Assembly (NCBI GenBank): GCA_035343375.1
Contig: DAOQYW010000007.1
Coordinates: 6,124-70,123 of the forward strand
From: Bacteroidales bacterium
GTDB lineage: Bacteria; Bacteroidota; Bacteroidia; Bacteroidales; ML635J-15
Length of the DNA: 64,000 bases
Direction of reading: 5' to 3'
Shown here: piece after piece, positions 51,433 to 53,403 of the stretch
Position numbering within the stretch: the first letter of the stretch is position 1
Layout of the letters: each line of letters starts with the position of its first letter
Notes under the pieces: model-generated
What the model was told of the DNA's origin: nothing
Databases searched by the model: none
Seen by the model: the letters and a program-made list of their open reading frames with translations, nothing else
Translations under genes and position numbers: made by a program

Positions 51433-51540
51433 AATATAATTTATGTTGTAAAAATACTATTATTTTTTGAAGCAATGTAATTTAAGAAATTAAAATATTG
51501 TTTAGCCTTTAATTATTCTTCCTCCCAACCATAACCACCA

Positions 51541-51567
51541 CTCCAACGCGAATGACTCGCGCTGGAG
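51541..51567 (+). repeat. REP-like palindrome 1 (degenerate centre)
   Basis: CTCCAACGCGAATGACTCGCGCTGGAG. Confidence 0.9.
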
Positions 51568-51591
51568 TTTGAGAGTTTGAGTTGGTGAAAT

Positions 51592-52263
51592 CTAAAATTT
51601 ATAACACAAACTAACTCGCCCTATTGCGCTAATGTGATTGAAATATCCAATAAAATCATTGCTGCCTTTTAGTACGACTTGCAGTGGAAGACCATAATCG
51701 TTAATTTCTCTAATGTACCATTGTTTTGGCGAGAAACCAAATCCGCCGGTAAGGTTTATGCAAAGTTTATCAGTGGGATATAGTTTATATCCTGTAAGTA
51801 ATCCTATAGATATTTTATGTTCTTTTAAACTAATAGTTAAGTTATTGTTTTCTGCATACTCAATTTGTGCAGGGGTAAATTCGTCAACATTTTTCACAAA
51901 ATTGTGTAAAAGCCAATACCTTGCATAAATGCCGTAATAAAACGCATCAACTTCTTTGGCATTAGTTTTATATTTCTTTAATTCTAAATTAGCAAAGCTA
52001 TTGTGCTTACGGTGGTAAATCGGGTCTTCTGTTATTATTCCATAACTTTTCTTTGAATAAAATGAACCCCCCAAGCTAAAACTTATTTTATTATTAAACT
52101 TATGCTCCACTGCAAGTCCGGGTAAATCTAGAATGCCTCCGTATATTGATACCTCAGTTTGAGTAAATGCTTTTACTAGGATTAGTTGAAAAACTGCTAG
52201 AATAATTATTTTCATCAACAGCCATTTAAAGTTTATAATATAATCGCTTTTATTTGAATGCAA
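51592..52263 (-). CDS. Outer-membrane beta-barrel protein (DUF3575-like); likely start ATG at 52215
   Basis: Signal peptide MKIIILAVF..FTQ; amphipathic strands (YYGIYARY, SIGLLTGYK, NLTGGFG); terminal SLCYKF; own TAAATTTG -7 box at 52261-52268 on the - strand. Confidence 0.7.
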   Translation of the reverse strand: MHSNKSDYIINFKWLLMKIIILAVFQLILVKAFTQTEVSIYGGILDLPGLAVEHKFNNKISFSLGGSFYSKKSYGIITEDPIYHRKHNSFANLELKKYKTNAKEVDAFYYGIYARYWLLHNFVKNVDEFTPAQIEYAENNNLTISLKEHKISIGLLTGYKLYPTDKLCINLTGGFGFSPKQWYIREINDYGLPLQVVLKGSNDFIGYFNHISAIGRVSLCYKF

Positions 52264-52318
52264 ATTTATTTAAGTTTTCTAAATCTCCAAAGTGTATTAT
52301 TCTCGCCAAACTCCAAGA

Positions 52319-52345
52319 CTCCAGCGCGAGTTACTCGCGTTGGAG
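52319..52345 (-). repeat. REP-like palindrome 2
   Basis: CTCCAGCGCGAGTTACTCGCGTTGGAG, the reverse complement of copy 7. Confidence 0.92.
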
Positions 52346-52366
52346 TGGTGTCTTTACATTCCAAAA

Positions 52367-52393
52367 CTACAGCGCGAGTTACTCGCGCTGGTG
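52367..52393 (-). repeat. REP-like palindrome 3
   Basis: CTACAGCGCGAGTTACTCGCGCTGGTG, with a perfect inner stem. Confidence 0.88.
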
Positions 52394-52399
52394 AATTGA

Positions 52400-52477
52400 A
52401 TCTTTACAATTTTTTCATTATTCAATGTTTATATCTAATATTCCACCAATTCCTGAATAATTCCTTGCAGATGAATA
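52400..52477 (-). pseudogene. Diverged fragment of a RAYT 3' end
   Basis: Encodes YSSARNYSGIGGILDINIE* versus FSSARNYSGMCGVLDIIIE* in the intact gene (52520-52595). Confidence 0.85.
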
Positions 52478-52483
52478 CCCAAA

Positions 52484-52510
52484 CTCCAGCGCGAGTTACT
52501 CGCGTTGGAG
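52484..52510 (-). repeat. REP-like palindrome 4
   Basis: CTCCAGCGCGAGTTACTCGCGTTGGAG, identical to copy 2. Confidence 0.92.
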
Positions 52511-52535
52511 TTACAGAATATCTTTACAATTTTTA

Positions 52536-53090
52536 TTATTCAATGATTATATCTAAAACTCCACACATTCCTGAATAATTTCTTGCAGATGAAAACTTAT
52601 ACTCTGTTGCATATGATACAAATCCCGCATCAACAGGATTTAAATGAATATAATTAAGTTTTTGTTTAAAAATCTTTTCTGTACTAATTTCAATAGGATG
52701 AAAACCATCTTGCCAAAACTTGTATTTCCAATTTCTTCTAATACGTAATCCTTCATTCCTAAAAACCGTCAGCATTTTATTTTTATCCCCTGATAGTTCC
52801 ATTTCCTTAATGATTTTCACAGATGTAAATTTTTTCATATCACGCATTATATTACTAATCCTTATGTCATTCCCTCTTGCAATAATGTGAAAATGAGTCG
52901 GCATTAAACAATAAGCGTACAATTCCATACCTTTATGATTCTGACAAAAGCGTATTGAGTCTATAAGTATATTAATATATTTTTCTTCAATAAATACCTT
53001 TTCCCAGTTTACAACTGTACTTGTAATAAAATAAGCTTTGGTATCGTCATGGGCTTTGTAATATTCTGACATGAAGTAATGTTTAGACAA
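52536..53090 (-). CDS. REP-associated tyrosine transposase (RAYT/TnpA-REP, Y1 HUH family); likely start ATG at 53072
   Basis: YFITSTVVNW..VF, YAYCLMPTHFH (HUH), MRDMKKFTS, WQDGFHP, QKLNYIHLNPV (catalytic Tyr) and FSSARNY; no frameshift or stop. Confidence 0.92.
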   Translation of the reverse strand: MSKHYFMSEYYKAHDDTKAYFITSTVVNWEKVFIEEKYINILIDSIRFCQNHKGMELYAYCLMPTHFHIIARGNDIRISNIMRDMKKFTSVKIIKEMELSGDKNKMLTVFRNEGLRIRRNWKYKFWQDGFHPIEISTEKIFKQKLNYIHLNPVDAGFVSYATEYKFSSARNYSGMCGVLDIIIE

Positions 53091-53095
53091 AGATA
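53088..53095 (-). promoter_or_regulatory. -7 box of the transposase promoter (duplicated at 53238-53245)
   Basis: TATCTTTG on the - strand, 15 nt before the ATG at 53072; an identical box precedes the duplicated ATG at 53222. Confidence 0.55.
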
Positions 53096-53133
53096 ATTAA
53101 TAATAAGATAGGTTAATGAATAGAATTACCAAA

Positions 53134-53160
53134 CTCCAACGCGAGTAACTCGCGCTGGAT
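53134..53160 (+). repeat. REP-like palindrome 5
   Basis: CTCCAACGCGAGTAACTCGCGCTGGAT. Confidence 0.92.
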
Positions 53161-53166
53161 TGGTTG

Positions 53167-53283
53167 GTACTTGTAATAAAATAAGCTTTGGTATCGTCAT
53201 GGGCTTTGTAATATTCTGACATGAAGCAATGTTTAAACAAAGATAATTAAAAATAGGATAGGTTAATGAATAGAATAACCAAA
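53167..53283 (-). repeat. Tandem copy (150-bp offset) of the transposase promoter and first 18 codons
   Basis: 53167-53283 versus 53017-53133: 5 substitutions in 117 bp; the 56 coding bp are identical. Confidence 0.92.
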
Positions 53284-53318
53284 CTCCTCCAGCGCGAGTA
53301 ACTCGCGCTGGAGGAGTT
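53282..53318 (+). repeat. REP-like palindrome 6 (extended perfect 18-bp stem)
   Basis: AACTCCTCCAGCGCGAGT-A-ACTCGCGCTGGAGGAGTT. Confidence 0.92.
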
Positions 53319-53359
53319 GAATTAAAATGTTTTTTTAGACTTTAATTATTCTTCCCAAA

Positions 53360-53386
53360 CTCCAACGCGAGTAACTCGCGCTGGAG
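53360..53386 (+). repeat. REP-like palindrome 7
   Basis: CTCCAACGCGAGTAACTCGCGCTGGAG. Confidence 0.92.
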
Positions 53387-53403
53387 TGGTTGAGCAGTGG
53401 TAT

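Follow-up and report, generated by a model that had tools for sequence, protein, structure and literature searches.

We analyzed a 64,000-nt window of a Bacteroidales draft genome (contig C7:6124-70123; genome 3.73 Mb, 33% GC, 131 contigs, 93% complete), focusing on a gene for a REP-associated tyrosine transposase (RAYT, also TnpAREP) and the repetitive extragenic palindromes (REPs) surrounding it. The gene is intact and lies on the minus strand at 52536..53072 (positions are those of the window). It encodes a protein of 178 aa starting at an ATG, with an alternative TTG at 53090 being less likely. Six near-identical 29-nt palindromes are arranged around it within 52318-53387, three on each side, with the two triplets inverted relative to each other, and a seventh, degenerate REP (copy 1) is located 780 nt from the six.

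The RAYT protein matched the NCBIfam model for REP-associated tyrosine transposases (NF047646) with 106.8 bits (cut-off 80) and also Pfam Y1_Tnp, and scored 16.4 bits, under the cut-off of 55, against the IS200 model NF033573. The motifs include THFH as the HUH motif (H60 and H62), FWQ, the catalytic Y141 within YIHLNP, and a C-terminal YSSARNY. In an alignment of 15 sequences (the RAYT protein and 14 homologs), H60, H62, W120, Y141, N145, and P146 were invariant. The AlphaFold model (pLDDT 90.6) had 4ER8, the Escherichia coli TnpAREP with a bound REP hairpin, as its top match in the PDB (TM 0.66-0.70), with the IS200/IS605 transposases ranking behind it, and 4ER8 was the sole PDB match by sequence. 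In a HMMER alignment to 4ER8, R77/K80/K81 aligned with E. coli R78/K81/K82, a weakly scored segment that is a lead only; these E. coli residues are among those contacting the hairpin, the mismatched C27 being touched by K82 (PMC3479197). The homologs are Bacteroidota proteins, many of them annotated as RayT, and the nearest named one is from a Bacteroidales metagenome-assembled genome (MAG). No near-identical duplicate of the gene was found in the 93% complete genome, in which it is thus single-copy, and the sole paralog above the cut-off was 39-40% identical and had its own REP type.

The REP consensus is ACTCCAACGCGAGTAACTCGCGCTGGAGT or its reverse complement, GC-rich compared with the 33% GC of the genome. 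Scanning the window with a 17-nt core pattern gave 13 strand-matches, against 0 in 100 shuffles, and no REP beyond the seven was detected within the 64 kb. On the plus strand, the centers read GAGTTACTC in copies 2-4, which are downstream of the gene, and GAGTAACTC in copies 5-7, which are upstream. The two arms differ by one transition, forming a G.T wobble on one strand and an A.C mismatch on the other, and the palindrome therefore has a polarity. This single stem mismatch (G.T or A.C) is found in copies 2, 4, 5, and 7, whereas the inner stem is perfect in copies 3 and 6; in copies 3 and 5, the outer stem is degraded. The centre-to-centre distances from copy 2 to copy 7 are 48, 117, 650 (across the gene), 153, and 73 nt. 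Folding the REP units as single strands gave energies between -12 and -22 kcal/mol (z-scores between -5 and -9). An earlier sequence-only reading of the window had described the seven copies around an intact HUH gene, the inversion of the triplets with their two centers, the mismatched inner and outer copies with a perfect middle one, and the lack of further copies in the 64 kb, and all of this was recovered in our analysis.

Downstream of the gene, REP2 (52318..52346) reads ACTCCAGCGCGAGTTACTCGCGTTGGAGT on the plus strand, with the G.T form on this strand and the A.C form on the gene sense strand. REP3 (52366..52394), with the perfect inner stem CAGCGCGAGT-T-ACTCGCGCTG and the degraded outer stem, makes a 48-nt direct doublet with REP2. 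It is followed by a non-coding remnant of the RAYT 3' end on the minus strand (52412..52486), matched by RAYT residues 161-184 in a tblastn search. The remnant is 85% identical to 52530-52604 and belongs to a tandem unit of 118 nt that comprises the gene 3' end, a spacer, and a REP. The gene-proximal downstream copy, REP4 (52483..52511), has the G.T form on the plus strand, and its stem ends 24 nt past the stop codon. A 106-aa open reading frame (ORF) on the plus strand (52258-52578), called as a gene on public contigs, was rejected as a coding sequence: it spans REP2-REP4, its product shows the translated repeat three times (PARVTRVGV / ARVTRAGE), and it is almost certainly an annotation artefact.

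On the upstream side, tandem unit B (53017..53166, minus strand) consists of the gene's first 56 nt, about 60 nt of upstream sequence with a promoter-like TAnnTTTG motif, and REP5 (53133-53161), which has the A.C form on the plus strand and an imperfect outer stem (GGATT). Unit B' (53167..53318, minus strand) is a 96% copy of the promoter region and of the gene's first 56 nt (a 49-aa open frame, matching RAYT residues 1-20 at 95%), with REP6 at its end; REP6 (53282-53318) is extended and has an 18-bp perfect stem. The outermost upstream copy, REP7 (53359..53387), again shows the A.C form on the plus strand and is 16 nt from the stop of an upstream 408-aa gene. A TATCTTTG motif located 15 nt before the start codon on the sense strand (53080-53100) fits the Bacteroidetes -7 promoter consensus, TAnnTTTG, and its second copy at 53230-53250 came with the 150-nt unit. 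Judging from these motifs, the RAYT gene may have two tandem promoters with the REP5 hairpin between them.

The layout of three plus three REPs could be traced to repeats of the gene ends. Upstream, 53017-53137 and 53167-53287 are 96% identical with a period of 150 nt; downstream, the gene's last 70 nt (52530-52604) and 52412-52486 are 85% identical with a period of 118 nt, followed by spacer and REP. As the inner spacers are duplicated gene ends, the outer tandem units account for REP6 and REP3, and REP7 and REP2 are additional copies farther out. A short TGTAAAGA remnant ahead of REP2 suggests a third, eroded downstream unit. The repeat structure thus indicates that the array grew via local tandem duplication, with no designed layout. 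One upstream event would have duplicated a REP together with the promoter and the gene's first 56 nt, and one or two downstream events the gene's last ~70 nt with spacer and REP, leaving single further REPs outside the tandem units. The mirrored spacing proposed in the sequence-only reading holds for the distances (48/117 and 153/73 nt), but the tie of the long inner spacers to duplicated gene ends had been missed. The most likely cause of the duplications is hairpin-stimulated replication slippage or unequal recombination, and not ordered construction.

The 3+3 sequence was found exactly in two independent assemblies (ENA and JGI contigs). In the NCBI assembly GCA_029558535.1, which is of the same strain, the array is 2+3, with exactly one 150-nt unit gone and all other aligned positions identical; because the units differ by ~4%, secondary loss or assembly collapse is more likely than an ancestral state. 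For the closest ortholog found (62% identity), which is located elsewhere in its genome context, two REPs upstream and three to four downstream were counted, with other duplications and orientations, and in a Bacteroidota survey at least three hairpins on both sides were detected at 2 of 69 loci. Tandem units made of the gene 3' end and a REP also occur elsewhere, i.e., at the paralog on contig C6 (a 76-nt duplication), in the isolate Chryseobacterium kimseyorum (three units, 258 nt), and in a Bacteroidales MAG (three units, ~54 nt), and a Chitinophagaceae MAG has two gene-3'-end units (227 nt) with a weak hairpin. Five or six units from the source genome and loci L040, L083, and L086 were inspected at their boundaries, and no shared tetranucleotide or guide-like motif was found there; the boundary microhomologies (GAGT, GGxG) are short and inconsistent. 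Lacking a shared junction motif, the duplications could not be attributed to RAYT cleavage.

Across the genome, 23 clean REP copies were identified, 7 in the window region and 16 outside the window on nine other contigs. All 16 dispersed copies are extragenic (outside ORFs of at least 90 aa), several of them between convergent genes, and their consensus is aAT-ACTCCAACGCGAGTAACTCGCGCTGGAGT-GCA, i.e., aAT-ACTCC...GGAGT-GCA. Half of them (8/16) are in direct doublets, in which a degenerate REP, ~20 nt, and a REP follow each other with ~50 nt from start to start, the same geometry as that of REP3-REP2. Only one inverted pair was found (contig C18). The GT[AG]G foot was absent at all 23 copies, whose flanks were listed, as the sequence-only reading had noted for GTAG. 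The CCAAA-like flank that it had seen to recur was confined to the copies around the gene and was rejected as a foot of the family; the dispersed copies have different flanks.

Two contigs hold denser REP arrangements. The intergenic region C100:3443-4310 is a tandem duplication (433 nt aligned, 98% identity, REPs 436 nt apart) in which two GC-rich hairpins of other sequence (GAGCCCTCCGGGCTC and CCCCGACTTAAAAGTCGGGG) accompany a REP and a degenerate REP, and judged by this content looks like a mosaic repeat cluster. C65:2800-6840 has six REPs in 4 kb, with a ~130-nt module (AATCAAATAATTAAACTGTTCCGATGATAGTCGGAACACC...) present three times beside REPs; a 72-nt unit, including the last ~16 nt of a gene with its stop codon, a degenerate REP, and a REP, is repeated 234 nt downstream with 100% identity.

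Within the genus (39 genomes), the source genome had 19 occurrences of the 15-nt core, three congeners had 13, 12, and 6, and none of the remaining 35 had more than one; a reversed-pattern control of the 15-mer had zero matches. RAYT orthologs with >50% identity were detected in two of the three other multi-copy genomes, and none was found in the third (G001, 90% complete). Each RAYT paralog or ortholog has its own flanking palindrome. The second RAYT of the source genome, the 39-40% identical paralog at C6:56900-57900 (locus L002), is associated with the hairpin CTGTCACAAGAT-AAA-ATCTTGCGACAG, which has an A.C mismatch; its flanking REPs are all in direct orientation, and one has a 21-nt loop insertion. 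Only 5 clean copies of this hairpin type were found, too few for statistics. Together, these data support a Bacteroidota REP family with a cognate RAYT, as had been proposed from the window alone.

To see how general the mismatch and the mirror orientation are, we performed a strict scan for GC-rich flanking hairpins at 80 loci of the RAYT protein family, which gave 107 hairpins that are not independent of each other. A single A.C or G.T mismatch was found in 73 of them, a perfect stem in 21, the opposite polarity (C.A or T.G) in 3, and another mismatch in 10. The polarity bias of 73 versus 3 has a binomial p of 2e-18, to be read with the non-independence of the hairpins in mind, and all but one of the 73 (72) had the mismatch at pair 7 or 8, counted from the loop. 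On the gene sense strand, upstream hairpins were G.T by 27 to 7 and downstream hairpins A.C by 37 to 2, and this arrangement was present in 14 of the 16 loci having one mismatch type per side. The window locus fits the rule exactly.

The flanking of RAYT genes by inverted REPs in all cases is a published hallmark (Nunvar et al., PMC2817692). The mirror orientation is canonical for RAYT subclass 2.6, to which we assign the protein below, and likewise the mismatched REPs are the canonical form, from which REP3 and REP6 deviate with their perfect stems. The mismatch is therefore the norm of the family and does not mark a copy as inner or outer, as the sequence-only reading had it. That reading had also considered the ordered mirror 3+3 array special, or built by the enzyme; this was not borne out, given that the spacers are tandem duplications, one assembly is 2+3, the ortholog's array differs, and the inversion is canonical. 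The E. coli TnpAREP no longer binds once the mismatch in the stem is corrected (PMC3479197), and by analogy REP3 and REP6 may be poor substrates. No mention of the mismatch or wobble was found in the searched passages of Quentin et al. (PMC6006769), so the polarity rule is maybe a small new generalization. In many relatives (loci L058, L064, L090, L102, and L111), a conserved GCT[AG] foot is located directly 5' of the hairpin on the G.T strand, and the REP family of the source genome is without it.

For the subclass assignment, we relied on published descriptions, including Table 1 and Table S1 of PMC6006769. Subclass 2.6 of TnpAY1 (Quentin et al. 2018) corresponds to Group 5 of Bertels et al. 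2017 (PMC6006769; PMC5581495). Its members are mostly from Bacteroidetes, with a mean of 179 aa and the motifs NH[LIV]H, WQ, YIH[QN]NP, and a C-terminal SS, and the genes are bordered by secondary structures of an atypical kind, without GT[AG]G, that have further copies across the genome (PMC6006769). For Group 5, a flanking 16-mer with ~31 occurrences genome-wide was reported (PMC5581495). The RAYT protein here shares the length (178 aa), FWQ, and YSSARNY, with THFH as the HUH motif and YIHLNP as the Tyr motif, though motifs alone cannot split 2.6 from 2.4. Among the homologs in the 15-sequence alignment, the residue before the first His is N, S, or T, that between the His residues is commonly L, I, or V, and the Tyr motif is mostly YIHNNP. 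Homologs from Pontibacter, Flavobacterium, and Amniculibacterium isolates (40-45% identity) carry exactly the hairpin type of Table S1 of the subclass description, and provide a bridge by REP type. Based on the motifs, length, host phylum, GTAG-less hairpins, and this bridge, we file the protein under subclass 2.6 / Group 5, as its sequence features suggest.

The surroundings of the array were compared with those in relatives. At the syntenic site of a congener, a 408-aa gene (80% identity) is followed by ~88 nt and dapB (81%), with no REP, RAYT, or passenger ORF. In the source genome, the same interval contains a 1.9-kb island (51486-53392) with the RAYT gene, its REPs, and a passenger ORF, bracketed by 81% direct repeats. 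The outer bracket unit (51486..51573, plus strand) is formed by a 37-nt spacer and REP copy 1 (51540-51568; degenerate core GAATGACTC, two stem mismatches) and is a direct repeat of the spacer and REP7 unit at 53319-53392. The passenger ORF (51592..52215, minus strand) encodes 207 aa from an ATG or 223 aa from an upstream TTG. It had no Pfam match itself, and three proteins were found in a collection of 5.8 billion proteins, its own sequence and two relatives, one of which (77% identity) carries PF12099 (DUF3575). The genes neighboring the RAYT did not recur beside RAYT orthologs in relatives.

Taken together, the region is very probably a REPtron, that is, a single-copy domesticated Y1 HUH transposase of subclass 2.6 / Group 5 with its cognate REPs. 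By analogy with E. coli TnpAREP and IS200/IS605, the enzyme would bind the single-stranded hairpin, read the stem irregularity and flank, and cut via Tyr141, and strand rejoining would have spread the ~16 REPs into intergenic spaces. Several points weigh against parts of this account. The binding and cutting of hairpins are inferred from the biochemistry of other systems. The REPs flanking the gene are all without the TGC/ATT flanks of the dispersed copies, and in their present form are not obviously the source of these; the family is small (~23 copies), and its activity may be ancient or very low. The subclass was placed by motifs and REP type, and the HUH motif reads THFH where the published consensus is NH[LIV]H. 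For the history of the array, the 2+3 assembly could have arisen from short reads in which the 96% tandem repeat collapsed, and would then be no real variant. Also, where a REP is recognizable, the unit junctions are 0-10 nt 3' of it at several independent loci, a proximity that random slippage does not predict and in which the enzyme could be involved.

Those junctions are an argument for supposing that the RAYT built the ordered array by REP cleavage and strand transfer, e.g., with an excised single-stranded circle pasted back beside a REP. They were observed at both REPtrons of the source genome and in three unrelated lineages; REP-bearing tandem duplications exist away from the gene as well (C100 and C65), and RAYT-based models for the growth of bacterial interspersed mosaic elements (BIMEs) have been published (PMC2817692, PMC3333891). 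We nevertheless consider this quite unlikely, as the boundaries share no tetranucleotide or guide-like motif, the unit lengths range from 54 to 258 nt with different start points in the gene, the two sides differ in age (96% versus 85% identity), the layout differs in the ortholog and is not fixed in the population (the 2+3 assembly), and stable hairpins are by themselves known promoters of slippage. A related proposal for the subclass 2.6 systems of Bacteroidota concerns the polar transition mismatch, in which a G of the 5' arm faces a T of the 3' arm (A.C on the complementary strand) at pair 7-8, counted from the loop. In place of the GTAG foot, it would mark strand and copy for the enzyme, with REP3 and REP6 as dead substrates and the units of gene end and REP as footprints of strand transfer. 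This full combination seems unlikely.

The gene-end fragments might alternatively be remnants of tandem duplications of the whole REPtron, or of a recombined second allele, with later internal deletions. Long partial RAYT copies are indeed present beside the intact gene at other Bacteroidota loci, L059 (470 nt, 98.7%) and L038 (483 nt), and the 85% and 96% identities of the 3' and 5' remnants to the gene indicate different histories. More events would be required than with two or three local duplications, however, and unequal crossing-over between inverted flanking REPs would invert the gene, not duplicate it; as the remnants are also in register as tandem units with spacers and REPs, we judge this origin very unlikely. 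The empty syntenic site in the congener, the 81% direct repeats of spacer and REP as brackets, and the non-syntenic loci of the RAYT orthologs would fit a present or past mobile composite element, in which the 1.9-kb island (51486-53392) with RAYT and passenger is transposon-like and not domesticated. Against this, the gene and the passenger are each single-copy in the genome, the bracket repeats have diverged and copy 1 is degenerate, and the congener difference is explicable by stepwise build-up or by deletion in the congener. RAYTs are also typically single-copy (PMC5581495), and overall a mobile island appears highly improbable. The REPtron reading, with local duplications at the gene ends, was therefore preferred.

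As a REPtron, the locus adds little, since RAYT genes with inverted REPs, including the GTAG-less Bacteroidetes subclass, are already catalogued. What is new is modest: the mismatch keeps one polarity and position throughout the subclass, and tandem duplications of gene end plus REP recur in unrelated lineages. If confirmed, both regularities would inform how the enzyme chooses strand and substrate and how REP clusters grow. We know of no biochemistry for subclass 2.6. The locus provides a compact test system, with one small enzyme beside natural substrates that differ in the stem mismatch (four mismatched and two perfect), a possible 150-nt copy-number variant, and a congener with an empty site.

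Compared with known systems, the IS200/IS605 elements (IS608, ISDra2) likewise have a transposase of the Y1 HUH type, whose substrates are imperfect, subterminal hairpins of single-stranded DNA. Their end hairpins are both on one strand, whereas here the hairpins are inverted about the gene. An IS200/IS605 element was rejected, with the IS200 model below its cut-off and neither tnpB nor multiple identical copies present. The REPINs of Pseudomonas fluorescens (Bertels and Rainey 2011, PMC3116915) are similar in their short extragenic palindromes, single-copy RAYT, and dispersed doublets. The REPIN as an inverted doublet unit was rejected on account of the 8/16 dispersed copies in direct doublets and the one inverted pair on C18.

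The E. coli K-12 REPtron (yafM/rayT; PMC3333891, PMC3479197) shares the fold (TM scores above), the HUH and Tyr motifs, several REPs on both sides of the gene (three REP pairs in E. coli), and a mismatch in the stem, including an A of the 5' arm that faces a C of the 3' arm. Its TnpAREP is of subclass 2.2 and only ~22% identical to the RAYT protein here. The REPs of E. coli number in the hundreds, form BIMEs in which the orientation alternates, and carry a GTAG guide on the 5' side and a bulge of two pairs; those in our genome have no GTAG, a single transition mismatch, ~23 copies, and one orientation per gene side. With the three REPs per gene side sharing their orientation and no alternation, a BIME was rejected, as was a canonical GTAG-type REP (subclasses 2.2, 2.4, and 2.5), with no GT[AG]G foot in 23 copies.

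The closest likeness is to the subclass 2.6 REPtrons. The sequence-only reading had named a family and layout already catalogued for a known RAYT group as grounds for its refutation, and with the published catalogue (PMC6006769) this is largely the case. The mismatch polarity rule and the gene-end tandem duplications are not described in the searched passages of PMC6006769 or PMC5581495. The stem here is longer (13-14 bp), and the GCT[AG] foot of many catalogued members is absent. Shared features are the ~179 aa, WQ, YIHxNP, and SS motif, the Bacteroidota host, the low gene copy number, and GC-rich GT[AG]G-less flanking hairpins with tens (not hundreds) of genome copies. The hairpins listed in the Table S1 (e.g., GCTGGCGCGAGTATCTACTCGTGCC) resemble the REPs of the window in the style of the core (CGCGAGT/ACTCG) and in the wobble between G of the 5' arm and T of the 3' arm.

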